Shown here in pieces: positions 405 through 61,332 of a DNA stretch of 64,000 nt. Location of the stretch: NCBI GenBank assembly GCA_016235865.1, contig JACRIK010000018.1, positions 66,891 to 130,890 of the forward strand. Reading direction: 5' to 3'. Both the position numbers and the translations under genes were made by a program. Position 1 is the first letter of the stretch. Each line of letters begins with the position of its first letter. The stretch comes from Planctomycetota bacterium (GTDB lineage: Bacteria > Planctomycetota > MHYJ01 > JACQXL01). The notes beneath the pieces were generated by a model. It did not search any database, was not told the origin of the DNA, and saw only the letters and a list, made by a program, of their open reading frames with translations.

Positions 405-857
405 ATGAGTGAGACACAAACTTCAACCGGGGAACAGACCGCGACTAATACATTTGAACCATTAATTATTGTTTACTGTTGTAACTGGTGTTCTTATGCC
501 GGCGCAGACTTGGCCGGGACATCACGTTTACAGTATCCGTCAAATATTCGCATTATCCGCGTAATGTGCTCAGGCATGGTTCATCCTAATTTAGTCGTGG
601 AGGCATTAACCAAAGGAGCTAATGGGGTTTTGATGTTGGGTTGCCATATCGGCGATTGCCATTATCTGGAAGGAAACTTAAAGGCCCAGGGGCGCATAGA
701 GGCCATCCAGCTTTTGCTGGATGATATGGGTGTGGAACGGGATCGGTTCCGGCTGGAATGGGTTTCGGCTTCGGAAGGCCCGCGCTTCGCCCAGGTTATC
801 AAGGATATGACAGAGCAGATAAAGAATCTTGGTCCCAGCTCGTTCAGGCAGTATTAG
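405..857 (+). CDS. mvhD: Methyl-viologen-reducing hydrogenase delta subunit (MvhD/FlpD-like)
   Basis: Contains the YCCNWCSYAGADLAG motif typical of MvhD. An SD (GAGGAG) precedes the ATG. It lies between hdrA and mvhGA. Confidence 0.8.
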   Translation: MSETQTSTGEQTATNTFEPLIIVYCCNWCSYAGADLAGTSRLQYPSNIRIIRVMCSGMVHPNLVVEALTKGANGVLMLGCHIGDCHYLEGNLKAQGRIEAIQLLLDDMGVERDRFRLEWVSASEGPRFAQVIKDMTEQIKNLGPSSFRQY

Positions 858-921
858 TTAGTTTAGTAGGAGCGCCCTATAGTAGGGCGTTGAGGCGGTG
901 GAGAGGGTAAAAGGAGTTAGT

Positions 922-1374
922 ATGAAGATAGACAATAACCTTCCACTATATTCTATTTCGGTTGTGGCCAAGCTCTGCTCGACTCCGATAAGGATGCTGC
1001 GAGAATATGAGAAACAGGGATTAATCAAACCGAAGAAGGTCAACCGGCGGCGCTTATTCACGGTTAACGAGGCGGGTTTTATCAAGGATATCAGATATTA
1101 TCTGGCCGAGAAAAGGATGACCATTAACGGGCTGAAGGAGTTTTATCTCAGGTCTTCTTGCTGGGAAATCAAGCAGTGCAACCGCCGGCAATGTCCGGCC
1201 TACGGTAAATTAGACAAGCAATGCTGGGAGGTAGTGACGCACCATAAAATATGCGACGGTAAGGCTTGTCCCTCTTGTCCGATTTTTATTATTAAGACGT
1301 CTTTATGTGGTAAGCAAAACAAGAAATACGAGAGCCACTTTGCCTACGAGGCGGGTGGTGTTAGAGCCAAATGA
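922..1374 (+). CDS. MerR-family HTH transcriptional regulator with a Cys-rich (9 Cys) C-terminal domain. The ORF track gives start 898; ATG 922 has the better SD.
   Basis: The N-terminus LYSISVVAKLCSTPIRMLREYEKQGLIKP is a MerR-type HTH. The C-terminus is CWEIKQCNRRQCPAYGKLDKQCWEV...CDGKACPSCPIF. AAGGAG lies 7 nt upstream of ATG 922. Confidence 0.6.
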   Translation: MKIDNNLPLYSISVVAKLCSTPIRMLREYEKQGLIKPKKVNRRRLFTVNEAGFIKDIRYYLAEKRMTINGLKEFYLRSSCWEIKQCNRRQCPAYGKLDKQCWEVVTHHKICDGKACPSCPIFIIKTSLCGKQNKKYESHFAYEAGGVRAK

Positions 1375-1379
1375 ATCAT

Positions 1380-1443
1380 CCCGATAAAAACTATCGGGAT
1401 AACTGGCTGTAAAGCTCCTTCGTCGCTAACAGCCAGTAAGGAG
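1380..1443 (+). repeat. Structured REP-like element copy C1: hairpin cccgatAAAAActatcggg, then ATAA, then stem ctggctgt...CTAAC...agccag, then TAAGGAG.
   Basis: Same architecture as the copies at 34147, 37895 and 39925. Its 3' end supplies the SD for ATG 1451. Confidence 0.6.
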
Positions 1444-1450
1444 TTAAAGT

Positions 1451-1645
1451 ATGCCAATAAATTACCGCGTTATCAGCAACAAGAAATATATGTGGGACGG
1501 CAAGGTCTATGACAACGAGGGTGATGCCCTTAATGCCGCATCTGGTTACAAGAAGGATAACTTTGACGTCCAATTAATCCAGGAGGAAGGCAAACATTAT
1601 ATTTATACTCGGCGTGTGGCTGCCGCGTCAACTACCGCGAGTTAA
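1451..1645 (+). CDS. Small hypothetical protein (64 aa) inside the mvh/hdr operon
   Basis: Strong SD TAAGGAG 7 nt upstream. No recognisable motifs. Confidence 0.4.
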   Translation: MPINYRVISNKKYMWDGKVYDNEGDALNAASGYKKDNFDVQLIQEEGKHYIYTRRVAAASTTAS

Positions 1646-1678
1646 AGAATAATATTATAAACCCGAAAGGAGGGAAAT

Positions 1679-2677
1679 ATGCCAGTAAGAGTGGCTGAAG
1701 AGTGGCTGAACATCTGTGGCGGATGTGAAGTTACTATTTTGGACATAGGCGAACCGCTCTTGGACCTTCTGCCCCAGTTGGAGTTCGTGCACATCCCGGT
1801 GCTGGCGGACAACAAATACTTCGGGCAGGTCGGCGAGAAGAGCGCTATGGAGATTCCCCAGGCAGATGTGGGAATCATCTCCGGCGGTATCCGCAATGAA
1901 AAGGAAAAGCATGTGGCTGAGGAAATGCGCAAGAAGTGCAAGACCATTGTTGCGCTCGGCTCCTGCGCCTGCTTTGGCGGAATTCCGGCTATGGCGAACA
2001 TGTGGAATCTGCAGGGCCTTTATGACAAGGTCTATCGTGACAGCGTCACGACAGAGAAGGGCGAGACCCCCAAGGAAAACCTACCGCCACTCCTTGACAG
2101 GGTATATGCTTTGGACGAGGTGATTAAGGTTGATGTGGCCATCCCCGGCTGCCCGACGTCTCCGGACTGGGTGGTCGGCGCATTGACTTCTCTTCTGACC
2201 GGCAAGCCTTTTGTCATGCCGGAAAAGAGCGTCTGTGATGAATGCCCGACCAAGCGGGAGAAGAAAGCCGCCGGCGGCCAGATTAAGAGACCTTTGGAAT
2301 CGATTACCTTTAAGCAGGGTGAGCCATGGGAAAATACCCGTTGCTTTATGGAACAGGGATTCCTTTGTCTGGGTCCTGTGACCAAAGCCGGATGCGCCGG
2401 TGGGACCACCGAGCCAGGTGAATCAAAAGTGCCACGTTGCATCAAGGGCTATATGCCTTGCCGCGGCTGTTTTGGGCCAATCCGCAAAGGCGCCAATCCA
2501 TTGGTTGATATGATGACGGCGATTTCCTCAATCGGACTAGATGCCAAACAAGTTGCAGACCGCAGGGCTTTGCTTAACAGGTATATCGGCGGTCAGGGAC
2601 GCTTGAAGCCCATACCTGAACCAAAGGGTGGAGCCCAAGCACAGAAAGGAGGCGCAGAATGCCAGGCAAGACCATAA
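1679..2677 (+). CDS. mvhG: [NiFe] hydrogenase small subunit (F420-non-reducing hydrogenase MvhG-type)
   Basis: N-terminal ICGGCEV...ILD and multiple Fe-S Cys clusters. SD AAGGAGGG precedes the ATG. It overlaps the start of the large-subunit gene. Confidence 0.85.
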   Translation: MPVRVAEEWLNICGGCEVTILDIGEPLLDLLPQLEFVHIPVLADNKYFGQVGEKSAMEIPQADVGIISGGIRNEKEKHVAEEMRKKCKTIVALGSCACFGGIPAMANMWNLQGLYDKVYRDSVTTEKGETPKENLPPLLDRVYALDEVIKVDVAIPGCPTSPDWVVGALTSLLTGKPFVMPEKSVCDECPTKREKKAAGGQIKRPLESITFKQGEPWENTRCFMEQGFLCLGPVTKAGCAGGTTEPGESKVPRCIKGYMPCRGCFGPIRKGANPLVDMMTAISSIGLDAKQVADRRALLNRYIGGQGRLKPIPEPKGGAQAQKGGAECQARP

Positions 2678-4107
2678 CTATTGCGCCGGTCAGCCGAATT
2701 GAAGGTCACGCCAAGATAACCATTCAACTGGATGACGGCGGCAATGTCCAAGATACATGGGTAAATGTCGTGGAACTCAGAGGTTTCGAGAAGTTCTGCC
2801 TGGGCCGGCCTGTGGAAGAGATGCCTCGTATCGTCACGAGCATCTGCGGTGTTTGTCCCTGGTCGCATCATCTGGCGGCAGCCAAGGCCTGCGATGCGGT
2901 TTTCGGGGTGGCACCGACTCCGACCGGGGCAAAACTGAGAGACCTCTGCAACAGTATTGCCTATACCGAGGAGCATATCCTGCATTTCTTCTTCCTGGGC
3001 GGTCCGGATTTCGTAATGGGACCGGATGCCGATCCGTCAGTAAGAAATGTCATTGGGATTGCCAAGGCCAATCCTGAGATAGGCAAGAAGGTGGTTCGTA
3101 ACAGGCACCTGGGCGCCAGGATGCTTAACATCGTTTCCGGTAAGTCCATTCATCCGGTCACAGCGGTTCCGGGCGGATTCTCCAAGCCGCTTACCGAGGA
3201 TGAACGCAAAAAGGTCCTGCCCATGGCTGAAGAGGTATTGGAGTTTGCTAAGTTCTCCATCAAGTTTGCTAAGGAGAGCATCTTCCCCAAATACCTTGAT
3301 GTTGTAAAGACCTTAGCGGTCATTAAGACTGGATTTATGGGAACGGTGGACAAGGATGGAGCGCTTAATTGCTATGACGGTAAAATCAGATTGATGAAGC
3401 CGGATGGCACATACACCGATTTTACCTATGACAAGTACACGGATTACATCGAGGAGAAAATCCTTAACTGGTCATATCTCAAGTTCCCGTATGCCAAGAC
3501 CTGGGGTGAGGGCTTCTCTATGGATTTGAACAATCCTAAGGGAATCTACCGGACCAATACATTGGCCCGCATTAACGTGGCGGAAAAAATGGCTACCCCG
3601 CTGGCGCAGAAGGAATTTGAGGAATTCCGCAAGAACTTCGGCCGACCGGCCCAATTGACCCTGCTTTATCACTGGGCCAGATTGATTGAACTCCTGTATC
3701 ATGCGGAACATGCGGTGGAACTCCTGAACGATAAGGATATCACAGGCAAGGAGACCCGGGTGAAGGTAACGCCCAGGGCCGCACGTGGAGTAGGTTGCGT
3801 GGAAGCGCCCCGCGGGACGCTGATTCACGACTATACCACCGATGCGGACGGTCTCTTGACTAATTGCAATCTGATAGTTGGCACCACCCACAACAATGCC
3901 GCGATTAATATGTCCGTCAAGCAGGCGGCCCAACTCCTGATTAAAGGCGGAAAATATGATCAGGGTATGATGAATAAGGTGGAGATGGCTATCAGGGCTT
4001 ATGACCCCTGTCTGTCTTGCGCGACGCATAATCTTGACGGGACTTTACCTGTTAAGGTTACCATTATGAATGCCAAGGGCAAAGTGGTTGATACACTGGT
4101 AAACTAA
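2659..4107 (+). CDS. mvhA: [NiFe] hydrogenase large subunit (MvhA-type)
   Basis: N-terminal RIEGHAKI plus CGVCPWSHH (L1/L2 Ni-binding motifs). C-terminal DPCLSCATH with cleavage-site His. Confidence 0.9.
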   Translation: MPGKTITIAPVSRIEGHAKITIQLDDGGNVQDTWVNVVELRGFEKFCLGRPVEEMPRIVTSICGVCPWSHHLAAAKACDAVFGVAPTPTGAKLRDLCNSIAYTEEHILHFFFLGGPDFVMGPDADPSVRNVIGIAKANPEIGKKVVRNRHLGARMLNIVSGKSIHPVTAVPGGFSKPLTEDERKKVLPMAEEVLEFAKFSIKFAKESIFPKYLDVVKTLAVIKTGFMGTVDKDGALNCYDGKIRLMKPDGTYTDFTYDKYTDYIEEKILNWSYLKFPYAKTWGEGFSMDLNNPKGIYRTNTLARINVAEKMATPLAQKEFEEFRKNFGRPAQLTLLYHWARLIELLYHAEHAVELLNDKDITGKETRVKVTPRAARGVGCVEAPRGTLIHDYTTDADGLLTNCNLIVGTTHNNAAINMSVKQAAQLLIKGGKYDQGMMNKVEMAIRAYDPCLSCATHNLDGTLPVKVTIMNAKGKVVDTLVN

Positions 4108-4160
4108 AAAGGACAAAAATAGGGGCGTCCCGGCTAATGGGGCGCCCCTATATACCCATT

Positions 4161-4712
4161 ATGGAAACATCTGATTATTATAGTAAGAATATATTGGTGC
4201 TGGGTTGCGGCAATATCCTTTACGGCGATGACGGATTCGGGCCGGATGTGGCCGATTATATTTCAAGCAATTATAAGATACCGGAAAATGCCGCGGTGGT
4301 AAACCTGGGTTTATCCACCCGGGGATTTATATTTGATATTTTATTGAGCGAACAGAGGCCAAAATGTATTGTGGTGGTCGATGCGGTTACCTGTGAAGGT
4401 AAGAAGCCGGGCGAGATATTCGAAATTCCGCTGGATAATCTCTGCAAGGAAAAGGTAGACGATTTCTCGTTCCACCAGGGACCGACATCAAATCTGCTTA
4501 GGGAATTAAGGGATATCTGCGGTGTTGGGATAGTGATTCTGGCCTGCCAGCCGCAGGGGATTCCCAAGGAAATGACCAGGGGGCTGTCAGAGCCGCTTAA
4601 GAAATCGGTTATTAATATGAGCGAGCTTATTTATAATAGATATTTGAATCATGAAATAAACAAGGAGAATTTGAAATATGCCAACCCAAGCAACTGTAAT
4701 GCCCGATGCTAA
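4161..4712 (+). CDS. Hydrogenase maturation endopeptidase (HycI/HoxM family). An alternative in-frame start exists at 4137.
   Basis: ILVLGCGNILYGDDGFGPDV is the maturation-protease signature. It lies directly downstream of mvhA. Confidence 0.7.
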   Translation: METSDYYSKNILVLGCGNILYGDDGFGPDVADYISSNYKIPENAAVVNLGLSTRGFIFDILLSEQRPKCIVVVDAVTCEGKKPGEIFEIPLDNLCKEKVDDFSFHQGPTSNLLRELRDICGVGIVILACQPQGIPKEMTRGLSEPLKKSVINMSELIYNRYLNHEINKENLKYANPSNCNARC

Positions 4713-5244
4713 GTTCCTTAAACAGATGGACGATAAAATCAAGGTAAATGTCAATCTGTGTTTCCAGTGCCGGAAGTGTTCGGCCGGATGCCCGATGGCT
4801 TATGCCATGGACTATACTCCGGCTCAGCTTATCCACGCCATTCGCCTGGGATTGAAGGATATTGTCATTAACAGCAAGACTATGTGGATGTGCTCTTCCT
4901 GCCAGACCTGCACGACCCGCTGCCCGCAGGAGGTTGATATTGCCAGGGTGATGGATACGGTCAAGATCCTTGCGGTGGCCGAGGGGATTAAACCCCCAGT
5001 TTCCAGCGTGCATACGTTCAATAAGGCGGCCTTGCGCAACATCAAATGGCTGGGCCGGATGTATGAACTGGGCATGATTGGCGACCTGAAGATGCGCACC
5101 TTTGAGTTCTTTAAGGATATGGGCTTGGGCATGAAGATGTTTATGAAGGGCAAACTGAAGATTATTCCTTCGGTTTCCCCGGGCCGGACCCTGACCACCT
5201 GGAAGATATTCTCCAGGTCTGCCAAGAAAGATAGGAGTAACTAA
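4678..5244 (+). CDS. hdrC: Heterodisulfide reductase subunit C
   Basis: Two CxxCxxCxxxCP motifs (CFQCRKCSAGCPM, CSSCQTCTTRCPQ). SD AAGGAG precedes the start. Followed by hdrB. Confidence 0.8.
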   Translation: MPTQATVMPDAKFLKQMDDKIKVNVNLCFQCRKCSAGCPMAYAMDYTPAQLIHAIRLGLKDIVINSKTMWMCSSCQTCTTRCPQEVDIARVMDTVKILAVAEGIKPPVSSVHTFNKAALRNIKWLGRMYELGMIGDLKMRTFEFFKDMGLGMKMFMKGKLKIIPSVSPGRTLTTWKIFSRSAKKDRSN

Positions 5245-15734: not shown

Positions 15735-17888
15735 TTATTCATCACGGATATCCAGGGTGGTTCTGAGGGTGGCGATGGCGGTTATGATCTCTCCACGCAT
15801 GGATTCATTCGTAACCTTGCCCAGCAGTGTTCTGAGGGTGAATATATCCTCTTTTTCGCCGATATTGGCCAGGATTCTGACCGCGCTGAGCACCAAATCC
15901 GGCTCGTTGCTGTCCAATAGGCCCCTGATAACCGGCAGGGAGCGCTGGTTTTTAATGCCTTGGAGCGAGCGGGTAATCTGGTCTGCCAGATTGCGGTAGA
16001 TTTGATCCTGGGTTCTTTTCCAGCGGTTAATCAGGTCATAATAGCCGCTGACCAGGAGTTCCACTGAAAAGCCGGAAAAGGCGTCCGAAGAGGTAATTCG
16101 GGCTATCTTCTGGATGGCCTGAAGGGTTAGGTCGCTATTGCCCTGGGCAATGATATTTTTGAGAAGTTCAAATGCCTGGGTATCTCCCAAAATAACGGCG
16201 GTTTCCAGGCAGGCCAGTTTGACCTTGGGGTCAGTGCTGGCCAGGCCGATATCAACCAGGCGGTTGACCAGGCGCTGTTTGCCCTGGGCGTTCTCCAGTG
16301 ACATAATCGTTTTTATGGTCGCCAGCTTTACCAGGTCATTCTTGTCTTCGGATAAGGCATAGAGCCGCACGAGTGTCTTTTCACGGTCGGATTTGTCTCC
16401 CAAGCGGACAATGGCCCGGCTGGCAGATAATATTATTCGGTAATCGGTCTCGTTCTTCAGTAGCTCATAAAGAAGCGGCAGCGCCGAGTTATCCGAGATG
16501 CCGGCTAGGGATTCCAGGGCCGCGTTAAAGAGGGGGTTGTCTTTACTCTCGCCCTTTTTTATGATATTGACCAGAATCTTTATCAGTTCGGCGGTATTGG
16601 CCGCGCCGATGGATTTTTTATCCTGAAGTGCGGTCAGGCACAGTTTCCTGGTATCGGTGTCCGTATTTGCGAAGATATCCAGCAAGATTATAGCGCCGCG
16701 GGATGGGTTAATCCCCACGAGCGTCTCGGCCGCGGCTGAACGGTATTCTATATAATAGCCGGATGATTTTATGATCGCCTCAAGTTCCGGATACAGTTTT
16801 TCAGAGCCGACCCGGCTTAAAACCCGGCCCAGATACACGGAGTTATATTTTCCTGATGGCGTGCTTTTAAGGATTTCCATCAAAGAAGGGATGGTTTCTT
16901 CGCCCATTCCGGTCAGGATTGCCTCAGCCGCCAATGCTTTGTCAAAGTCATTACGTTCGCTGAACTGTTTGAGCAGCTCCAGGAGATGTTTAGCTCGGTC
17001 GGCCATATTATCGCCGACCGGCAAATCAAATCCGATTGGTTTTATGCTGATGCTGAAGGCAACCCGTTCACCGGCTTTTACCGGATGTACGGAATTTTTC
17101 CACTCCACCTGCACGGTTCCTTCATCAACGCTGACCGTAGTGATTTTGATACCTTCGGCGCTTATTACGTTGTCATCAATCTGTTTCCGGACCGGCGCAT
17201 TGTATTTCAGGTGATTAACCCTGAATCTGGTTCCGACCACCTTGATTCGGCCTGATTCGGTCTCGACATATAACGTTTTAGGATTCTTGGCCACATCAAG
17301 GTAAATAGAACCTTGGTGCAGGAGGATATTGCCCCGGCTCTTCTCGGACGGTTGGGTGATATTCAGGGCGGTTTGCCGGTCCATCTCTATTTTGGTCCGG
17401 TCAGCCAGGGATAACACGGCCTTGGTTCCGGCGGTTTGCATTACCGTATCGCTTTTGATGTAATATGTCCCTTTTGTGGTTGCCTCCTGAGATTGGTTGT
17501 CTTGCCGGACTGATACTGTTCCGCTATCAAGGGAAATCGGCTGGATTGTTTCAGGTGGTTTAGGGCTGGCCAGCCAGATAACTACTGCTAATAATATTAC
17601 CGCGGCTGAAGCAAATGCATACCTGAGTCGATAAAACAGGTTTACTTCCGGGTACTCATGGACGCCTAATTCATCTATTTTCTCGTTGACGGCTTCTATA
17701 AAGTTATCTTTGGGCGTGATATCGGCCCATTTATGAAGTATTGCCGAGACCTTCTTTGACTGGATAAGAACATTCTTGCATTCCGGGCAACTTTCAAGAT
17801 GATTGGTAACTGAACGCATTTCTTCCTCAGGCAACAATCCCTTTATATAAGCATCTGTGGCCAATCTGATTTTATCGCAATTATTCAT
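15735..17888 (-). CDS. Anti-sigma factor: zf-HC2 N-terminus, one TM, FecR-like segment and a long periplasmic HEAT-repeat domain
   Basis: CxxC...HLESCPECK zinc-finger and TM ASAAVILLAVVIWLA. Lies immediately downstream of the ECF sigma gene. Confidence 0.65.
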   Translation of the reverse strand: MNNCDKIRLATDAYIKGLLPEEEMRSVTNHLESCPECKNVLIQSKKVSAILHKWADITPKDNFIEAVNEKIDELGVHEYPEVNLFYRLRYAFASAAVILLAVVIWLASPKPPETIQPISLDSGTVSVRQDNQSQEATTKGTYYIKSDTVMQTAGTKAVLSLADRTKIEMDRQTALNITQPSEKSRGNILLHQGSIYLDVAKNPKTLYVETESGRIKVVGTRFRVNHLKYNAPVRKQIDDNVISAEGIKITTVSVDEGTVQVEWKNSVHPVKAGERVAFSISIKPIGFDLPVGDNMADRAKHLLELLKQFSERNDFDKALAAEAILTGMGEETIPSLMEILKSTPSGKYNSVYLGRVLSRVGSEKLYPELEAIIKSSGYYIEYRSAAAETLVGINPSRGAIILLDIFANTDTDTRKLCLTALQDKKSIGAANTAELIKILVNIIKKGESKDNPLFNAALESLAGISDNSALPLLYELLKNETDYRIILSASRAIVRLGDKSDREKTLVRLYALSEDKNDLVKLATIKTIMSLENAQGKQRLVNRLVDIGLASTDPKVKLACLETAVILGDTQAFELLKNIIAQGNSDLTLQAIQKIARITSSDAFSGFSVELLVSGYYDLINRWKRTQDQIYRNLADQITRSLQGIKNQRSLPVIRGLLDSNEPDLVLSAVRILANIGEKEDIFTLRTLLGKVTNESMRGEIITAIATLRTTLDIRDE

Positions 17889-17891
17889 ATT

Positions 17892-18458
17892 CTAATTCAC
17901 GTATCCTTTAAGCATCTCAAAGAGCATTTGTTTGCCTCTGAATATCCATGATTTTACCGTGTTCTCATTGGTTTTGAGGACATCGGCGATTTCCTTATAA
18001 GGCAAATCATTATAAACCGCCATTATGATGGCCTCACGCTGGTCTTCAGGCAGTGACTGGACTGCCCGGGACACCTTTTCCCGTATCTCCTTATCTGCCA
18101 GTGCATCTACCGGCGAGGCGTCCCGATTCACATCGGGACGGACCAAATCGGTCAGCTCCACATTCCGGGGGCGCCGGGCTTTATCCCGGAGCTCGTTCTT
18201 GCAGAGATTGACCGCAATCGTATATAACCAGGTGGTAAATTTATACCGCTGGTTATAGTGTTTGATATTAAGATAACAGCGGACAAAGACCTTTTGGGCC
18301 AATTCCTCCGACCTCGAGGCATCGTTGATATTGCGGTAAACAAAATTAACGATGGCCTTATGGTACTTTTCTATTAGGGCATTAAATGCTTTACGGTCTC
18401 CTTTCTGCGCCTGTTTAACCAGCGCCGAATCAGGAAGTTGTTGGCCTGTTTCTTTCAT
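17892..18458 (-). CDS. ECF (sigma-70 family, group 4) RNA polymerase sigma factor
   Basis: Region 2 (FNALIEKYHKAIVNFVYR) and region 4 (YKEIADVLKTNENTVKSWIFRGKQML). Confidence 0.85.
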   Translation of the reverse strand: MKETGQQLPDSALVKQAQKGDRKAFNALIEKYHKAIVNFVYRNINDASRSEELAQKVFVRCYLNIKHYNQRYKFTTWLYTIAVNLCKNELRDKARRPRNVELTDLVRPDVNRDASPVDALADKEIREKVSRAVQSLPEDQREAIIMAVYNDLPYKEIADVLKTNENTVKSWIFRGKQMLFEMLKGYVN

Positions 18459-18521
18459 TATATTATACCCCTGGGTTCAGGAAATAGTTGCAACGATTTA
18501 TGATTTAATAGAACTATCAGT

Positions 18522-19271
18522 TTAGGTTTCCTCTTCAAACGGACCTTCGGAATCGCCTTCCACGAACTGCCTGATAAACGGGTCTTGAGATTTTTGGAAA
18601 TATTCCACATCACCGGTCTGGATAATCTTGCCGTGATAGAGCAGGGCAATCCGGTTTGCCACCATAAAGGTGCTTTTCATATCATGGGTTACCACGACCG
18701 AGGTGATATTCAGTTTTTTCCTCAGGCGGATAATCAGGTTGTTGATCACGTTGGACATTATCGGGTCCAGGCCCGTGGTCGGCTCGTCATAGAGGATGAT
18801 TTCCGGGTATCGGACAATGGAACGGGCCAGCGAGACCCGTTTTCGCATGCCGCCGCTTAATTCAGCCGGCATCAGGTTTTCGGCGTTATGCAGACCTACA
18901 ATCTCCAGAACCTCGGTAACCCGCTTATTTATGCCTTCTTCCGGCATCTCCTGGTGTTCCCTTAAGGGCAGTCCGACATTCTCGCCGACCGTGAGTGAAT
19001 TGAGCAATGCGCTGCCCTGGAAGAGGAATCCGAATTTCTTACGCATATTGCTGAGTAGCATTTCATCCGGGTTGGTGATATCCGTGCCGTCAACGGTAAC
19101 TTTGCCTGAATCAGGTTGCATCAATCCGACCATCAGTTTGAGAGTCACGCTTTTACCAGCTCCGCTTCGGCCGATTATCGCAAAGGTCTCGCCTTTGGCT
19201 ATCTTAAAATTTACTCCGTTCAAAACGGTTTTATTGCCCAGGATTTTTTTAACGCCATTAAATTCTATCAT
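18522..19271 (-). CDS. ABC transporter ATP-binding protein, MlaF/Ttg2A-like (no cognate permease adjacent)
   Basis: Walker A GRSGAGKS, signature LSGGMRKRVSLAR, Walker B ILYDEPT. Confidence 0.8.
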   Translation of the reverse strand: MIEFNGVKKILGNKTVLNGVNFKIAKGETFAIIGRSGAGKSVTLKLMVGLMQPDSGKVTVDGTDITNPDEMLLSNMRKKFGFLFQGSALLNSLTVGENVGLPLREHQEMPEEGINKRVTEVLEIVGLHNAENLMPAELSGGMRKRVSLARSIVRYPEIILYDEPTTGLDPIMSNVINNLIIRLRKKLNITSVVVTHDMKSTFMVANRIALLYHGKIIQTGDVEYFQKSQDPFIRQFVEGDSEGPFEEET

Positions 19272-25137: not shown

Positions 25138-25224
25138 GATTTCACCTCTCTTTTCTTACCCGCTGTTAACGACAAGGGAGTGTTGCAGCGAGTTAGATCC
25201 CGCCGAAAGGCGGGATTTTCATGA

Positions 25225-52267: not shown

Positions 52268-52363
52268 AGGGGTGTATTATATTAGAATCCGTCTTGCAGT
52301 TCAAATAATAAGGGGCGCTCCGATATTAACCGGAACGCCCCTTTATCCGTTAAAGAACCGATG

Positions 52364-53737
52364 TTAGTTCTTGGACTTGTCCGTGTTCTCTTTATTTTCC
52401 TTGTTGGTATCGCCCTGGCCCTTGCCCTGTCCAGCGCTGTCGCGGCCTTCGCCTTTGCCGCCGTCTCTGACGCCGTTATTATCATTGTCCTTGGGAACGG
52501 TTCCGGTTACATCCATACTACCCTGGGACGTATTGGGCTTGCGGTTCTTACCTTCATTCCTTAGTTTCGGGTTGCAAATCGGGCAGGTTCTGGGATTATG
52601 CGGCGGTCTCAGGCGGGCATCTTTATCGTTACCCTGTCCGGAATTACCGTCACCGGGCCGGTCTACCTTGCCGCTATTGGCATCATCGCGGTTGTCGCCT
52701 CTGCGTTTGTTGTCAGATGAGCCGGAACTGCCTCCCTGCGGTTGTTTGGGCTGTGTTTTCGGCCTGTCGACGCCTTCTCTCTTGGGCGGCAGTTTTCTGT
52801 CGTTACCCTGTCCGGAATTGCCGTCACCGGGCCGGTCTATCTTGCCGCTCGTGGAATCGTCGCGGTTGTCTCCGGCGCCCCATTTACGCTTGGGCGGAAA
52901 TTTATTATCGCGCCTGTCCTCGCGGCGGTCACGGACATCCTCGCGTTTGTCTTTGGCGTCCTCACGTCTGTCCTTGACATCTTCGCGATTGTCGCGCCTG
53001 TCTTCTTTTCTATCCCAGGCATCTTCTTTTTTATCGCGTCGGTCTTCGGCCCTATCCCATTTGCCGCCATCTGTTTTGCTGTCACGTTTATCTTCTGCTC
53101 TGTCGCGTTTGTCCTCGCGGCGGTCTTTGATATCCTCGCGTTGATCGCGTTTGTCTTCGCGTTTGTCTTTGATATCCTCGCGGTTATTGCGCTGGTCTTC
53201 TTTCCGGTCCCGGACATCCTCGCGCCGGTCCGCGCCCCATTTACGCCTTAAGGAAGAATTATCCTTCCTGTTTTCATCGCCTTGACCTTTGCCCTGGCCT
53301 ATGCCATTGCGTCCTTCGCCCTGGCCGCGGTCCCGGACTCCGGAGTTATCATTATCTTTGGGATTGGTAGTCTGCGGAGGTTGTCGCTTGGGCGATTCTT
53401 TCTTGGGCGGCAGATGCCGCTTGCAAAGTGGGCAGGTCCTGGGGTCATGCTTGGGTGGTTTTACCCCGGGTTTTTTATCATCGCCCTGTCCGGAATTGCC
53501 GTCGCCCGGTCGGTCAACCTTACCGCTCTTGGCGTCATCGCGGTTATCGCCTTTACGGTCGTTGGCTGATGGTGCATTCTTGTTGGGAGTGTTTTTATTG
53601 CCGGCCTTGGGTCCGTTGTTGTTTCCGCCGGCCTTGGCCGGCGCCCTGCCAGGTTCAGCGTACAACGAGGCAACTAAACTGACTAACAGCATTACTGCCA
53701 GCAGATAGCCCATTCCCTTTCTTATGTTCTGCCACAT
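52364..53737 (-). CDS. Secreted hyper-charged low-complexity repeat protein (RED[IV]KDRREDKRD x about 14; flanking GKVDRPGDGNSGQG and PRTCPxC modules)
   Basis: Signal peptide MWQNIRKGMGYLLAVMLLVSLVASLYA. The internal repeat architecture is visible in the translation. Confidence 0.5.
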   Translation of the reverse strand: MWQNIRKGMGYLLAVMLLVSLVASLYAEPGRAPAKAGGNNNGPKAGNKNTPNKNAPSANDRKGDNRDDAKSGKVDRPGDGNSGQGDDKKPGVKPPKHDPRTCPLCKRHLPPKKESPKRQPPQTTNPKDNDNSGVRDRGQGEGRNGIGQGKGQGDENRKDNSSLRRKWGADRREDVRDRKEDQRNNREDIKDKREDKRDQREDIKDRREDKRDRAEDKRDSKTDGGKWDRAEDRRDKKEDAWDRKEDRRDNREDVKDRREDAKDKREDVRDRREDRRDNKFPPKRKWGAGDNRDDSTSGKIDRPGDGNSGQGNDRKLPPKREGVDRPKTQPKQPQGGSSGSSDNKRRGDNRDDANSGKVDRPGDGNSGQGNDKDARLRPPHNPRTCPICNPKLRNEGKNRKPNTSQGSMDVTGTVPKDNDNNGVRDGGKGEGRDSAGQGKGQGDTNKENKENTDKSKN

Positions 53738-53833
53738 ATCCCTGCTCCTTTCGTTAGAGTCCGTTGGACCCCGAAAGCATTCGGGGAACTTACGGACTCT
53801 TACGTCCCGCCGTATGGCGGGACATCTTGATTA

Positions 53834-54679
53834 TTATTTATTATTTCCTCCTGCCTTTGGCGGAGGGTTAGTTTTGTTTGGTTGGTGCCTTTTCTGGCCT
53901 TGCTTGGGAGCGCTATTATTATCGCCGCCTTGCTTGTTGTTATCCGGTCTCTTGGCATTATCAGGGTTTTTCTTTCTTTGTTCATCGCAGAGCTTCTTCA
54001 GCTGTTCCCGTCTCTGTTCGGGCGGAAGCTTCTTGAGTTCCTCAACCTTATCCGGTCCCAGTTTCTTCTTGAGGTCTTCCTCCAGTAGTTTCTTGATTTC
54101 CTTACGGCGTTCCTCGGGCGGAAGGTTCTTCAGCTCTTTCCTCTTTTCCTCGGGCAGTTGCTTGACCGCATCGATGGTATGCTGGACCATTTGGCGTTTG
54201 GCCGGGGTCATGTTCTGGATTTTGTGCATCAGTTCCTTGCGTTTTTCCGGGTCCATATTCTGGAGCCGTTCCTTAAGCGCCTGGCGTTTCTCCGGCGGCA
54301 TCTGCTGGAGTTGCTTATGGGCCTGCTGGAGACGTTCCTTTTCCTCCGGGGTCATCTTCTGGAACTTTCTGAAGGCCGCCTTGGTTTTCTCCTTCTGCTC
54401 CGGAGACATCTTCTGCCACTGTTCCTTCCGGCGTTCCATCATCATCTTGCGGAAACGAGGTTTTTCATCGGATGATTTACCGTTGTCTTTATTATCCGTT
54501 TTATCTTTGGCGTTGTCGTCTTTGGTATTATCCTGAGAAACGGACGGCGTATTATTTCCCTGATCCTTAGCCGGCTGGTTATTCTCTTGTGCAGAAGAAA
54601 TCAAAGCGCTTGCTGTAAAGAGTAGCGCCGCACACGCCATCATCAATAATCCGTGCAATCTGAGGAATCTGTGTTTCAT
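53834..54679 (-). CDS. Periplasmic LTXXQ-motif (Spy/CpxP/ZraP-like) repeat protein
   Basis: Signal peptide. About 8 repeats of [LM][STP]PE[QEK] (MSPEQ, MTPEE, MPPEK, MDPEK, LPPEQ...). Confidence 0.5.
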   Translation of the reverse strand: MKHRFLRLHGLLMMACAALLFTASALISSAQENNQPAKDQGNNTPSVSQDNTKDDNAKDKTDNKDNGKSSDEKPRFRKMMMERRKEQWQKMSPEQKEKTKAAFRKFQKMTPEEKERLQQAHKQLQQMPPEKRQALKERLQNMDPEKRKELMHKIQNMTPAKRQMVQHTIDAVKQLPEEKRKELKNLPPEERRKEIKKLLEEDLKKKLGPDKVEELKKLPPEQRREQLKKLCDEQRKKNPDNAKRPDNNKQGGDNNSAPKQGQKRHQPNKTNPPPKAGGNNK

Positions 54680-54681
54680 AA

Positions 54682-55146
54682 TTATTCTCCGTTCAGGTCC
54701 GCATCCATAATCTCGGGCATTGCCTCAACCAGTTCATAATCCTGGACGATATCCGCCACTTGGGCGGTTTCCATGTCCTCTAAGAGTTCGATATTGGCGA
54801 TTATCTCGGTATCTGAGCCGTTAAATGGGTTGACCAGCCAGACTAGGGCGGCCACCATAACCACGGCCGCCGAGGCCAGCAATCCGACCCGGCGCCAGCC
54901 CAGATGGAACCTATAGGCGCGTTCTAATTTATCTATCTTTTGGTTAAGCCCGGCCTGGAGATTGCCGGTTGCCGGCGCAACCTGATAGGCATCCAGCAGG
55001 GTATCCAATTGCTCCAACGCCTTTAACTCGCTTTGGCAGGCGGGGCAGGCACCCAGATGCGACGCTATCAGGGCCTTTAATTCCGGTGCCGTCTCGTCCC
55101 GGCGGTAGGCCTCTAACTCATTAATAACCTCATTACACTTAATCAT
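54682..55146 (-). CDS. zf-HC2 anti-sigma factor (single TM). The ORF track gives start 55182; ATG 55146 fits the family.
   Basis: MIKCNEVINELEAYRRDE...HLGACPACQ, plus TM RVGLLASAAVVMVAALVWLV. Confidence 0.55.
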   Translation of the reverse strand: MIKCNEVINELEAYRRDETAPELKALIASHLGACPACQSELKALEQLDTLLDAYQVAPATGNLQAGLNQKIDKLERAYRFHLGWRRVGLLASAAVVMVAALVWLVNPFNGSDTEIIANIELLEDMETAQVADIVQDYELVEAMPEIMDADLNGE

Positions 55147-55220
55147 ATTAGCGCTCTCTTTCTGACGATGGTATAAACACACCGGGGTGTGAAAAGTTAC
55201 GGTGAAAATAAATAAATTAA

Positions 55221-56387
55221 TTACAGGCCCATGCCCTGGGTAATCTTGAATTCGGAGAAATCCTTATTGCCGAAGCGGTTCAGAGTCAATTTGTCTATAA
55301 TAATAGAAGGCGGTTTATTTAGGGCTATCTCAGCCACAAGCTTGCCCAGCATCCCGGCTCGCATAAAGCCATAGCCGTTATCGCCGGTAGCCAGGATAAA
55401 ATTGGGTATCTCAGGCATCCGGCCGATAATCGGCATCCGGTCCGGCGTGGCCGTGACTAACCCGGCCCAGCTGTTGGCCACGCCCGCATCGGCCATCCCG
55501 GGTATCAGGTATGAAATCTTCTGGGCAATCTCTTCCAGGAATGCGTTGTCAGCCTTCTGCCGGAACTGGTCCGGATTCTCCTCGGTTTCGGTGGTGCCGT
55601 CGCCGGCCAGGAGCAGTCCGCCGGTCTCAGAGTGGAAATAGACATTCCGGTTAATATCATAGACCGCCGTGATGTTCTGAGGCAGGGGATGCGAGGGTTT
55701 CAATACCGCAATCTGGGTCCGGTATGGCTTTAAAGGCAGTTTCAGGCCCAGCAGTTCGCCCACCTTCTTGGCCCAGCATCCGGCCGCATTAATGAGCAGG
55801 GGAGTGGAGAATGTTCCCTCGCTTGATGTGACTTCAAAAATATCGCCAGTTCTGCGGAGGCCCGTAACCGGCGCCATTTCGTATAGCTTGGCGCCGTTTC
55901 GGCGTGCTTCCTTGGCAAAGCCGTTGACAATCTGGAATGGGTCGAGATAGCCGTCCTCCGGTGTGTATAGTCCGGCCGGAAAATCATCCAGATGCATCCA
56001 GTGCCCGAGATGTTTGCGGATGCCGGCCCGGTCCAGCCAGTCGGATTTGATATTATATTTATTTAACAGTGTCTGCGAGTCCCTGAGATATTGTTCCTCC
56101 TGAGCAGTGGTGGCCAGATAAATCAGGCCGCTCTGGTGGAATTTGATATCCTTATTGCGTTTGATAAGTTCCCGGTAGATATCCAGAGAGCCCTGAACCA
56201 GCTGGACGTCAATCTCATTGGCCCACTGGAGTATGGTCAATCCGGCCGCCTTGCCGGATGAGCCGCTGCCCAGCAGGTTCTTTTCCAGCAGGACGATATT
56301 TCTGGCTCCGGCCTGTGAGAGGTGGTAGGCGATGCTGGCGCCGATTACCCCTCCGCCGATGATAACAATATCTGCTGTCTTGCTCAT
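55221..56387 (-). CDS. FAD-dependent oxidoreductase, DAO family (glycine/D-amino-acid/sarcosine oxidase-like)
   Basis: DIVIIGGGVIGASIAYHLSQAG dinucleotide-binding motif. Confidence 0.8.
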   Translation of the reverse strand: MSKTADIVIIGGGVIGASIAYHLSQAGARNIVLLEKNLLGSGSSGKAAGLTILQWANEIDVQLVQGSLDIYRELIKRNKDIKFHQSGLIYLATTAQEEQYLRDSQTLLNKYNIKSDWLDRAGIRKHLGHWMHLDDFPAGLYTPEDGYLDPFQIVNGFAKEARRNGAKLYEMAPVTGLRRTGDIFEVTSSEGTFSTPLLINAAGCWAKKVGELLGLKLPLKPYRTQIAVLKPSHPLPQNITAVYDINRNVYFHSETGGLLLAGDGTTETEENPDQFRQKADNAFLEEIAQKISYLIPGMADAGVANSWAGLVTATPDRMPIIGRMPEIPNFILATGDNGYGFMRAGMLGKLVAEIALNKPPSIIIDKLTLNRFGNKDFSEFKITQGMGL

Positions 56388-58844: not shown

Positions 58845-60887
58845 ATGAAACGCCAGAAATTACTTGTAGTAACCCCGCCGAGGCGGGCGAATCTATCCGA
58901 TTATCTTAACCAAATCAAAGCAGCTCTGGACCAGCAGGACTATAACAAGGCAAAACGATTAGGTGGGATTGCATCAAAGAAACTTGCTTCTTTAGAGCAT
59001 TCTCCGCTTGAGGAATATTTATTATACAGCAGATTGGGACATTCTCATTATTTACTGGCGCAGTATTCTTTTGCTTTGGATGCTTTTTATAAAGCATTTC
59101 TGATAGCCCAAAAGAATTCTTTGCATCCGGCATACCAAAATTATATTTCAGCCCAAATGGGAGATATTCTTCGTTTAATTGGAAATATCAGCCAGGCATT
59201 ACGGCAGTTCGAAAAAGTAGGGCAGTACTACAAGCAGTATGGCGATGGTGTTTCGCCTATGAATAAGCAGTTGTATGGCGGCTATTTACTCAGCCTGGTG
59301 GGTTGTTATTTGCATCAAGGCAAACCCGATAAAGCAAAGAATATTATAACCATTAGTGAAGCAGATGATAGCTTATCACAAACCCAGATGTTTTTAATGG
59401 ATTATAATCACTTTAAAGGAGAGTATCTGATATTGGTGGAAGAATACAATGATTCCAGGGAAACGTTTCTAAAATGCATAGAAATATGTAAACAAAACAA
59501 CGACCAATGCGGTTGGTTACAAGCATCGATACACCTCGCCCAAATTGACCTTATAGAAGAAAAAATAAGTAACGCTATTAAATTATTGAACATAATTCTA
59601 AAATCTGCCCGGCAATTAAAACTTAATGACCTCATTTGTGAATCAGGACTTCTTTTGAGCAAGTGTTATTTGCTTAAAGGTCTGCCTGATAAAGCTATTG
59701 CTATGGAGCAACGGATTAAACCCATTCTCTCAAAATTAGATACGGCCTGGCTCTATGAAAAGACCCGTGAGTTTGAGAAACTCTATCGCCAGTTGTCCTC
59801 CACAGGCGGATCCCGCTTAGCGGGACAATCATCTCCAAAACCCCTGCCTGTCCCGGCTGCACCTGCGATTCTGGTCAAGACATTGAATCACCGCTACGAA
59901 ACTTCGCCGTATAAAGAGATGGTCATTGGCAGTTCCGAGTTAATGCGCGAGGTATTTCAGTTAATAGAGAAGATTGCGCCATCGGATTTGCCGATTCTAA
60001 TCCAGGGCGAAACCGGCACCGGCAAGGAACTGATTACCCGGGCGATTCACGCCAAGAGCCAACGGGCCGAAAAGGTCTTCCTAGCATTTAATTGCGGGGC
60101 GATACCGGAGTCGCTCATGGAAAGCGCGCTTTTCGGCCATACCAGAGGCGCCTTTACCGGCGCCACTGAAGACAAGAAGGGATATATTGAACTTGCCTCG
60201 GGCGGAACGCTTTTTATAGACGAGGTTGGTAATATGTCCGTTGGGATGCAGCAGAAACTCCTGCGCGTCCTGGAGGAGAATCTGGTCTGGCGTATCGGCG
60301 CGCAGAAACAGGTATCTGTTAACACTCGGTTCATCTTTGCCAGCAATCAGAATGTCGAGCAGTTAGTTCAGCGGAAACTTTTCCGCGAAGACTTGTTTTA
60401 TCGTATCAATACTATTGTGCTCAACCTACCGTCTTTGAAAGAACGCCAAGACGATATTCCGTTATTGATAGAACACTTCCTTAAGAAATATGCCACTGGA
60501 ATGCAGAATGTAGAATTGGGAGTGGGGAATGAAAAATTCCGCATTCCGGATTCCACACTCCGCATTCTGATGGACTATTCCTGGCCCGGCAATATCCGCG
60601 AACTGGAAAACGAAATTCAGAGAATCTGCGTCCTGCACCCTGAAGCAAAGATTATCACTGAGCTGATGCTTTCTGAATCAATTCGTACTTGTATGTCTAC
60701 ATCTCTATCTATAGCTAAGGATATATTGACTCTTAAAGAAATAGAACAAAATAGTATTGTGGAAGCGCTTAAAAGATGTAACGGTAATATGACTAAAACA
60801 GCCGGGCAACTTGGACTTACCCGGGCCGGTCTTTACAGAAAAATGAAACGGCTTGGAATAAAACCGTCCCTTGTTACCATATCGTAA
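58845..60887 (+). CDS. Sigma-54-dependent transcriptional activator: TPR-like N-terminal sensor domain instead of a receiver, then AAA+ and Fis-type HTH
   Basis: ILIQGETGTGKELITRAIH, GAFTGA, ESALFGH, and C-terminal MTKTAGQLGLTRAGLYRKMKRLGI. Confidence 0.85.
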   Translation: MKRQKLLVVTPPRRANLSDYLNQIKAALDQQDYNKAKRLGGIASKKLASLEHSPLEEYLLYSRLGHSHYLLAQYSFALDAFYKAFLIAQKNSLHPAYQNYISAQMGDILRLIGNISQALRQFEKVGQYYKQYGDGVSPMNKQLYGGYLLSLVGCYLHQGKPDKAKNIITISEADDSLSQTQMFLMDYNHFKGEYLILVEEYNDSRETFLKCIEICKQNNDQCGWLQASIHLAQIDLIEEKISNAIKLLNIILKSARQLKLNDLICESGLLLSKCYLLKGLPDKAIAMEQRIKPILSKLDTAWLYEKTREFEKLYRQLSSTGGSRLAGQSSPKPLPVPAAPAILVKTLNHRYETSPYKEMVIGSSELMREVFQLIEKIAPSDLPILIQGETGTGKELITRAIHAKSQRAEKVFLAFNCGAIPESLMESALFGHTRGAFTGATEDKKGYIELASGGTLFIDEVGNMSVGMQQKLLRVLEENLVWRIGAQKQVSVNTRFIFASNQNVEQLVQRKLFREDLFYRINTIVLNLPSLKERQDDIPLLIEHFLKKYATGMQNVELGVGNEKFRIPDSTLRILMDYSWPGNIRELENEIQRICVLHPEAKIITELMLSESIRTCMSTSLSIAKDILTLKEIEQNSIVEALKRCNGNMTKTAGQLGLTRAGLYRKMKRLGIKPSLVTIS

Positions 60888-61014
60888 CATAGCGTATATT
60901 TTATATACACCATCTTAATAAATGGCAATTAGCATACGGCATACCTTTGTCGTAACCGCATTATTTATAATGTGTTAATACAAAATTAATCTCCCCGTAT
61001 TATTTTACTAAATC

Positions 61015-61131: not shown

Positions 61132-61332
61132 ATGAGTAAATTAGCCGCTATGCAAAGCAGATGCCCGCCTTTGAGTGAAAATGATGTCCTTAATCTCCGG
61201 GGCCAACCGGCATGCAAATCCAAACTATTGAAAGATGAGGAATGGGTCTATTATTCTTTACCTAACTATACCGAGGAGCATTATTTCTTCCGAAACGGAC
61301 GTTTGGTGAGATGGAAGGAGATAAGGATATGA
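61132..61332 (+). CDS. Small hypothetical protein (66 aa), translationally coupled (ATGA) to the downstream lipoprotein gene
   Basis: ORF with a 4-nt overlap, downstream of the sigma-54 promoter. Confidence 0.4.
   Translation: MSKLAAMQSRCPPLSENDVLNLRGQPACKSKLLKDEEWVYYSLPNYTEEHYFFRNGRLVRWKEIRI

Follow-up and report, generated by a model that had tools for sequence, protein, structure and literature searches.

How can an anti-sigma factor operon be controlled when no sigma factor gene lies beside it? This question is raised by three minus-strand genes in a 64,000-nucleotide stretch of the metagenome-assembled genome of a Planctomycetota bacterium (contig JACRIK010000018.1, positions 66,891 to 130,890). 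The whole stretch is called the window below, and positions refer to it unless another locus is named. The genes encode a predicted anti-sigma factor with a zf-HC2 domain (gene 1), a DUF3106 protein (gene 2) and a modular charged protein (gene 3). An earlier note on this DNA had described an envelope signalling module of the extracytoplasmic function (ECF) type that lacks its sigma gene, and the sequence comparisons reported here point the same way. The locus is probably a sigma-dependent regulatory cassette, the sigma gene being encoded elsewhere. Two features are new. The cassette is conserved, self-promoted and devoid of a sigma gene, and an uncatalogued domain forms the basis of its accessory protein.

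The anti-sigma gene and its promoter-like motif

The three genes are nearly contiguous, as the earlier note had read them, and correspond to the minus-strand open reading frames (ORFs) 54682..55182, 53834..54679 and 52364..53737. Within the first of these, the longest ORF available, gene 1 starts with the ATG at 55146 (54682..55146) and encodes 154 residues. Gene 2 (53834..54679) and gene 3 (52364..53737) encode secreted proteins of 281 and 457 residues, respectively. Genes 1 and 2 are only 2 nucleotides (nt) apart, and a structured spacer of 96 nt separates genes 2 and 3. When the genes are compared with their orthologs in locus L014, nucleotide differences at codon positions 1, 2 and 3 amount to 24, 15 and 53 in gene 1, 35, 28 and 107 in gene 2, and 75, 73 and 190 in gene 3. 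This excess of third-position changes in the minus frames indicates purifying selection on the three genes, and the long plus-strand ORFs are thus mirror artefacts, which bears out their earlier dismissal. The same codon-position pattern rules out that gene 3 is a non-coding or low-complexity artefact.

The gene 1 product is identical to NCBI protein P0191, annotated as a "zf-HC2 domain-containing protein", and matches the Pfam zf-HC2 profile with 24.8 bits (cut-off 22.2). It contains the H-x3-C-x2-C zinc motif and the upstream ligand that define ZAS anti-sigma factors; none of the four putative zinc ligands (C4, H30, C34 and C37) varies among 19 aligned homologs. A single hydrophobic segment, WRRVGLLASAAVVMVAALVWLV (residues 84-106), is conserved and predicted from its hydrophobicity to form a transmembrane helix. 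The earlier description of a zf-HC2 anti-sigma factor crossing the membrane once is therefore confirmed on both counts. The extracytoplasmic part consists of a tail alone, with no sensor domain. This tail of 48 residues comprises 14 D/E and no K/R (net charge -14) and follows the conserved pattern ...EII.NIELLEDMET.Q..D...DYELVEA.PEIMD.DLNGE. As judged from these sequence features, the protein is a class-I (ZAS, zf-HC2) anti-sigma factor made of a cytoplasmic domain, one transmembrane helix and an acidic tail.

An ECF-type promoter-like motif is located about 25 nt 5' of the anti-sigma ATG (55172..55201, minus strand). It reads CGTAAC-TTTT...N...-TGTTTATA, that is GnAAC-N16-TGTT, and is the sole match in the window. 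A shared G-N-AAC-(T-rich)...TGTT(T/A)A motif precedes the anti-sigma gene in nine of the nine loci compared, the spacing from AAC to TGTT being always 16 nt and the spacer sequence unrelated from one locus to the next. In two of these loci, L015 and L016, the motif stands between the sigma and the anti-sigma genes, with the sigma gene directly upstream. An AAC -35 box followed by a spacer of 16-17 nt is an established hallmark of ECF promoters. The presence of the motif in all nine loci, two of them with a sigma gene upstream, makes the cassette look like a self-contained sigma-dependent feedback unit.

Copies of the motif with one mismatch occur six times in the window for 3.1 +/- 1.8 expected, i.e., at chance level. 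One such copy, GTAAC-N16-TGTTAA at 60952-60978, was considered as a second cassette promoter and rejected; it is intergenic and lies about 150 nt 5' of a 66-residue ORF only (61132-61332).

At the other end, the operon is closed by a hairpin resembling an intrinsic terminator (52310..52343, minus strand), with a 15-bp stem and a T-rich tail. The terminator sequence, AAAGGGGCG...CGCCCCTTATTATTTGAA, is conserved 3' of the orthologous gene in L014 and L010, and a sigma-70-like promoter of the next gene is found beyond it (52276-52304). The spacer between genes 2 and 3 carries two RNA stem-loops without a U-tract (53756..53825, minus strand), with a folding energy of -47.3 kcal/mol (z = -5.6 relative to shuffled sequences). 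In L014, L010 and L001 this spacer also holds GC-rich hairpins, which differ in sequence; a search of the spacer region against Rfam matched no family. These hairpins may tune the expression of gene 3.

GC-rich palindromes of the type GTCCCGCC-N4-GGCGGGAC were also noticed at 53804-53823 and 25197-25216 of the window, at 6360-6440 of L001 and at 10396-10571 of L014. These recurrent intergenic palindromes of this genome and its relatives may be elements resembling repetitive extragenic palindromes.

Related loci, the periplasmic partner and the missing sigma gene

The earlier note had pointed out that no ECF sigma gene adjoins the operon. Scans of the window ORFs with Pfam and phmmer agree, and none was found next to the cassette, whether in the window or in six loci related to it. 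In these six (L001, which equals L012, L009, L010, L011, L013 and L014), the anti-sigma gene is followed by a DUF3106-like gene and by the gene of a third secreted protein. These sigma-less cassettes adjoin the same aminotransferase gene and sometimes the same gene for a flavin adenine dinucleotide (FAD) oxidoreductase; the FAD oxidoreductase next to the cassette in the window (55221-56387) is identical to MBI5778890.1. The clade is narrow, with three loci in a scan of 185,579 species representatives. Homologs of gene 1 are 41-88% identical to it and show little or no variation in the zinc ligands and in the tail motif.

Complete modules are found in other genomes. A sigma gene, a zf-HC2 anti-sigma gene and a DUF3106 gene stand together in L015 and L016. 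A Brocadiia genome (L002-L003) has the order sigma factor, anti-sigma factor, repeat protein and helical protein. In L021, sigma and anti-sigma genes are accompanied by a true Metal_resist-LTXXQ protein, which fills the slot of gene 2.

This last locus helps to place the gene 2 product. The protein matches Pfam DUF3106 (PF11304) in two stretches, with 62.7 bits (cut-off 24.3; E = 5.1e-17), and contains eight helical [LM]xPE[EQK] repeats, in line with the number of about eight counted before. Its mature form has a net charge of +24. Histidines account for 6 of its 281 residues (2.1%), and no metal site is recognisable. Neither the LTXXQ (PF07813) nor the Metal_resist (PF13801) profile matches it at E<=0.1; comparison by hhalign with a hand-entered Escherichia coli Spy sequence gave a probability of 1.8%; and a search of the PDB returned no significant relative. 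Another DUF3106 protein, P0213, gives a sub-threshold match to Metal_resist. A literature search on DUF3106, DUF3619 and PF11304 found nothing relevant. DUF3106 orthologs hold the same position in L001, L009-L011, L013 and L014. Since DUF3106 fills in L015 and L016 the slot that Metal_resist-LTXXQ fills in L021, it occupies the place of a Spy/CpxP-like "periplasmic sensor". The gene 2 product is a positional analogue of Spy/CpxP-type proteins, which does not imply homology. The former label of Spy/CpxP/ZraP-like protein accordingly holds for the operon slot and fails for family membership. DUF3106, a family of no known function, would thereby be tied to a role as periplasmic partner of short-tailed ZAS anti-sigma factors.

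Where, then, is the sigma factor? The sole ECF sigma gene of the window, according to Pfam and as the only phmmer match, is located at 17892..18458 (minus strand; Sigma70_r2 and Sigma70_r4_2 domains). It is co-encoded with a 717-residue anti-sigma factor (15735..17888, minus strand) carrying zf-HC2, FecR and HEAT repeats, and the orphan anti-sigma factor finds its best match, itself excluded, in the N-terminal domain of the latter (26.6% identity over 109 residues, E = 1e-11). The sigma factor itself shares 39, 35 and 40% identity with its counterparts in L015, L016 and L021, which all adjoin a short ZAS anti-sigma gene and a DUF3106 or LTXXQ gene; for comparison, L015 and L016 share 45% identity between their sigma factors. 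Identity with the sigma factor of L002 is 29%. On these resemblances, the product of 17892..18458 can be put forward as a candidate partner of the orphan anti-sigma factor, an assignment that is possible but somewhat less probable than its failure.

A shared promoter cannot be invoked as proof of this partnership. The sigma gene is preceded by a conserved TGCAACTATT...GGGGTATAAT element (TGCAAC...GGGGTATAAT), whose -35 box is similar to that of the cassette and whose -10 box is different. The element (window region 15735-18530) is conserved in four metagenome loci, L017-L020. It ends 3 nt before the ATG, which suggests that the sigma transcript is leaderless.

Taken together, these observations suggest the following mechanism. 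The partner sigma factor would transcribe the cassette, so that its activation would yield more anti-sigma factor, in a negative feedback. With such a layout, the sigma gene could come to lie elsewhere with no loss of control. In the periplasm, the acidic tail (-14) of the anti-sigma factor is the most likely docking site of the DUF3106 protein, which is basic (+24) and would gate release or proteolysis; the action of CnrX on CnrY, or of RseB on RseA, would provide a precedent. As the sigma-type promoter fronts the anti-sigma gene and not the sigma gene, the unit formed by the anti-sigma factor and its partner appears autonomous, and annotators should not expect a sigma gene next door. The locus thus points to a way of splitting an ECF module, which leaves an autonomous feedback cassette made of an anti-sigma factor and its partner.

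A cluster resembling defence or toxin-antitoxin genes was observed near one of the related cassettes (L001, 1-3731). It comprises Peptidase_M78, PIN/DUF4411, DarT and Macro domain (DarTG-like) genes.

The third gene and its acidic-heptad domain

The third gene is absent from L015 and L016, and an unrelated coiled-coil protein takes its position in L009, L011 and L013. This makes it an accessory part of the cassette. Because the gene is lineage-specific, being absent or replaced in relatives, its product is less likely to belong to the core of the signalling device than to act in the periplasm as an effector or modulator induced along with it. What could such a protein do?

The previous description of a secreted, charged protein of 457 residues is confirmed by a signal-like N-terminus (residues 1-27) and by a composition in which D, R, K, G, N and P make up 68% of the residues. 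Three types of modules are recognised. Module A (DNRDD..SGKxDRPGDGNSGQG) is present in three copies (residues 64-85, 290-311 and 348-369), which are 66-77% identical in DNA and retain the peptide motif. Module B (H[DN]PRTCPxC; residues 97-105 and 380-388) and module C (GVRDxGxGEGR...GQGKGQGD; residues 133-154 and 422-443) are present in two copies each. Between them lies an acidic-heptad two-helix domain (residues 161-279; 52901..53257, minus strand), in which two arms of seven xEDxxDx heptads surround a KTDGGKWD break and an RKWGA cap stands at each side. The central repeats had been counted as 14 copies of a 13- to 14-residue unit; the unit is instead a heptad, xREDxxD, of which there are 14, in two arms of seven. 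Nor are the flanks mirror-symmetric, as had been thought. The order is A-B-C, RKWGA, seven heptads, KTDGGKWD, seven heptads, RKWGA, A, a linker, and A-B-C, with three copies of GDGNSGQG.

Full-length relatives of this protein are P0001-P0005 and the proteins of L014 and L010. Few relatives with the A/B/C architecture were returned by the first protein search, and all those with a named source belong to Planctomycetota or Brocadiia. In the alignment of seven relatives, modules are shuffled and heptad numbers vary, while His...CPxC is kept in all full-length members. Searches of Pfam and NCBIfam with the gene 3 product returned sub-threshold noise only (DUF7501, DUF2946 and an archaeal SMC-related model).

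The heptad domain has a much wider distribution. A profile search covering 1.84 billion representatives retrieved 512 proteins at E<=1e-3, of which 218 remain at E<=1e-10, or about 500 clusters at 50% identity. The domain is defined here by two arms of at least five in-register heptads around an H/T-D-G-G-x-x-D break, which the protein of the window possesses. Many further matches resemble it in exact register and not in composition alone, with 5-8 heptads, a break of consensus ..D-A-x-H-D-G-G-x-x-D.., and 5-8 heptads. An alignment of 31 domains shows the E, D and D of the heptads to be invariant or almost so, in contrast to variable basic positions. The smallest members, of 110-160 residues, consist of a signal peptide and the domain only. 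A census of 177 proteins with at least five heptads included 169 full-length ones, of which 137 have an N-terminal signal or anchor according to a crude test. Among the 177, EF-hand loops are present in 24, module C in 18 and module A in 4. Fusions confirmed by Pfam associate the heptad domain with EF-hands (P0008, P0011) and with the periplasmic nickel/cobalt domain RcnB (P0060). The Pfam models scanned do not cover the domain, the newer PF28533, recorded for P0018, not having been inspected. A search of PDB sequences with the domain profile gave nothing at E<=1, Foldseek found no match in the PDB for either gene 3 model, and no peptide string of the domain was found in the literature. The heptad two-helix unit is a widespread, mostly secreted domain that has no match in Pfam, the PDB or the literature. 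Exposing such an uncatalogued secreted domain, with its roughly 500 clusters, is one outcome of the study of this locus.

Several side observations concern the modules. DUF3106 carries module C (GVRDRGQGEGRDGAGQGKG) as a C-terminal fusion in L009 (6583-7539), L011 (3827-4669) and L013 (10550-11338); the module likewise stands at the end of many hairpin proteins of other phyla and behaves as a portable C-terminal tag. In P0020 (L005, 2-2864), a single protein unites the hairpin with an EF-hand loop, module A and PE repeats of the DUF3106 type, as if genes 2 and 3 had been fused; the gene fragment that precedes it ends in an acidic tail resembling the C-terminus of an anti-sigma factor. Finally, genes of PDZ-domain proteins lie 3' of two module-A genes, one for an S41 C-terminal processing peptidase (L001, 9619-11889) and one for a PDZ protein (L008, 6165-7073). 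They may indicate a link to proteolytic processing, or be a coincidence.

Our best guess is that the gene 3 protein would bind cations or metal ions in the periplasm. The evidence is circumstantial and consists of the invariant acidic stripes, the His and CPxC motifs and the fusions with EF-hands or RcnB. The roles suggested earlier, an effector of envelope stress and a cation or polyphosphate buffer, are to be taken as hypotheses. Two members of the family are moreover encoded directly 3' of efflux operons on unrelated metagenome contigs (L006, 1-6146; L007, 1-6053); each has a coiled coil at its N-terminus, followed by the heptad hairpin and a GVRDHGxGxGAGKGQGG tail. These operons have the order outer-membrane efflux protein (OEP), membrane fusion protein (MFP), resistance-nodulation-division (RND) pump and PG0541. 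The EF-hand and RcnB fusions and the position after RND operons in two loci lead to the hypothesis of periplasmic cation handling. In its full form, the proposal is that the new family binds Ca2+ or transition metals along its invariant acidic stripe and that here, with the His/CPxC modules, it provides a periplasmic metal buffer or sensor, produced from a portable, self-promoted anti-sigma cassette acting at a distance from its sigma factor. We put this forward tentatively, and consider it rather doubtful as a whole.

Several points weigh against the reading of the locus as a sigma-dependent cassette with a metal-binding accessory protein. The -10 box of the cassette, TGTT, differs from the usual ECF CGT, and the assignment of an ECF-type promoter would stand on conservation and on resemblance to ECF promoters. 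For the partner sigma factor there is no more than the candidate at 17892-18458. The complementary charges of DUF3106 and the tail of the anti-sigma factor are no more than suggestive. As for gene 3, its product has no canonical EF-hand loop (DxDxDGxI) or Pfam EF-hand match, and its periplasmic CxxC pairs could simply form disulfides. The RND pumps encoded beside heptad-domain relatives score below the multidrug and CusA/CzcA cut-offs and are not clearly of the heavy-metal type. Finally, the heptad domain modelled alone with AlphaFold2 shows helices at residues 2-53 and 57-109 with a mean predicted local distance difference test (pLDDT) score of 85.9, but with a predicted template modelling (pTM) score of only 0.37, which makes the packing of the two helices as a hairpin uncertain.

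Alternatively, the gene 3 protein may be a regulatory ligand or a part of the sensor, its basic modules or module C binding the anti-sigma tail or DUF3106 and setting the threshold of anti-sigma proteolysis. The co-transcription of gene 3 with the regulators, its net charge of +25 facing the -14 of the tail, and the presence of module C on the DUF3106 C-terminus in L009, L011 and L013 are all consistent with this idea, as is a repeat protein encoded directly 3' of the anti-sigma gene in L002. However, gene 3 is dispensable for the cassette, being missing or substituted in the five loci listed at the head of this section; moreover, the hairpin domain and module C are found in many proteins with no anti-sigma gene as neighbour, for instance after RND operons. 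We therefore regard a ligand role as unlikely.

A second alternative is that the protein acts as a non-specific hydrophilic protectant or spacer, similar to hydrophilins or late embryogenesis abundant proteins, or as a polyelectrolyte buffer or condensate former, in each case with no specific ion binding. This would suit a mature protein with a fraction of charged residues of 0.47 and a mean hydropathy of 0.25, far below the Uversky boundary of 0.43, in which 266 of the 457 residues have a pLDDT below 50 in the full-length AlphaFold2 model and the number of heptads varies among orthologs. The same model nevertheless predicts helices at 161-220 and 229-279 (pLDDT 73-91); most of the remaining chain scores below 50, with modest rises at both CPxC segments. 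The protein previously proposed to be an intrinsically disordered polyampholyte is thus a strong, well-mixed polyampholyte, but it is not wholly disordered. Furthermore, its charge-segregation index kappa is 0.076, below the 0.168 +/- 0.022 of shuffled controls. Charges are therefore finely alternated and not blocky, which argues against coacervates or condensates driven by charge blocks. Also at odds with a mere protectant are the position-by-position conservation of three motifs (GDGNSGQG, H..CPxC and GVRDxGxGEGR), the invariance across phyla of the acidic residues E, D and D in the heptads, and the retention of the module A peptide in spite of divergence of its DNA. A role of this kind is improbable.

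It has lastly to be asked whether the 154-residue protein is a decayed or orphaned remnant that controls no sigma factor and the three genes mere neighbours, as the seven loci of the clade with no adjacent sigma gene and the rarity of the family could suggest; this is contradicted by the conservation data, namely the (nearly) invariant four zinc ligands and tail motif, the purifying selection on gene 1, the conserved promoter motif and the 2 nt that separate gene 1 from the DUF3106 gene, and is hardly credible.

Two other regions of the window were noted. At its start (405-5244), hydrogenase-related genes encode an FlpD/MvhD-like protein, a HycI maturation protease and a 4Fe-4S dicluster protein, together with a MerR regulator; the hydrogenase-related genes fit an anaerobic lifestyle. 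At 58845-60887, a 680-residue protein combines, from reading of its translation only, a sigma-54-activator-like ATPase sequence, a C-terminal segment resembling a helix-turn-helix and a long helical N-terminal region.

Comparison with known systems

Operons in which an ECF sigma factor, an anti-sigma factor and a periplasmic partner are encoded together are already known, and the present one is ordinary apart from its sigma gene lying elsewhere. Among its close counterparts are the operons combining an ECF sigma factor, a zf-HC2 anti-sigma factor and an LTXXQ-Metal_resist (Spy-CpxP-ZraP-like) protein, as in L021, which agree with it in gene order and gene sizes. It differs from them in that its periplasmic protein falls outside both profiles and that the sigma gene is missing from the locus.

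The CnrYXH system, which responds to nickel and cobalt in Cupriavidus metallidurans, consists of the ECF sigma factor CnrH, the anti-sigma factor CnrY and the sensor CnrX. There, the periplasmic C-terminus of CnrY docks into CnrX (PMC6851896). Both systems have a small single-pass anti-sigma factor with a short periplasmic C-terminus and a co-encoded helical periplasmic protein that is the likely sensor; in both, the genes of the anti-sigma factor and of the sensor would be transcribed in a sigma-dependent manner, as we infer for the cassette. However, the cassette has no sigma gene in its operon, its anti-sigma factor is of the zinc-binding ZAS type, its periplasmic protein belongs to DUF3106 and not to Metal_resist, and it includes an extra third gene. 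Moreover, the sensor of the Cnr system has a defined His/Glu/Met metal site, whereas no metal ligands were identified here.

With RseA/RseB and other class-I anti-sigma systems that have a periplasmic co-regulator, the cassette shares a membrane anti-sigma factor that would be gated or protected by a periplasmic partner, and feedback from a promoter of the type used by the sigma factor. It should, however, be noted that the partner has no sequence relation to RseB and that no protease gene is linked to the cassette in the window; the mechanism proposed here would be similar in outline.

Finally, the heptad domain recalls the ER/K single alpha-helix domains and the charged antiparallel coiled coils, with which it has in common long helices made almost entirely of charged residues, possible salt bridges from i to i+3 or i+4, and a heptad periodicity. 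It is distinguished from them by its richness in Asp, its strictly invariant E-D-x-x-D, the conserved H-D-G-G break halfway along it, its extracytoplasmic location and the single semi-hydrophobic position in each heptad.

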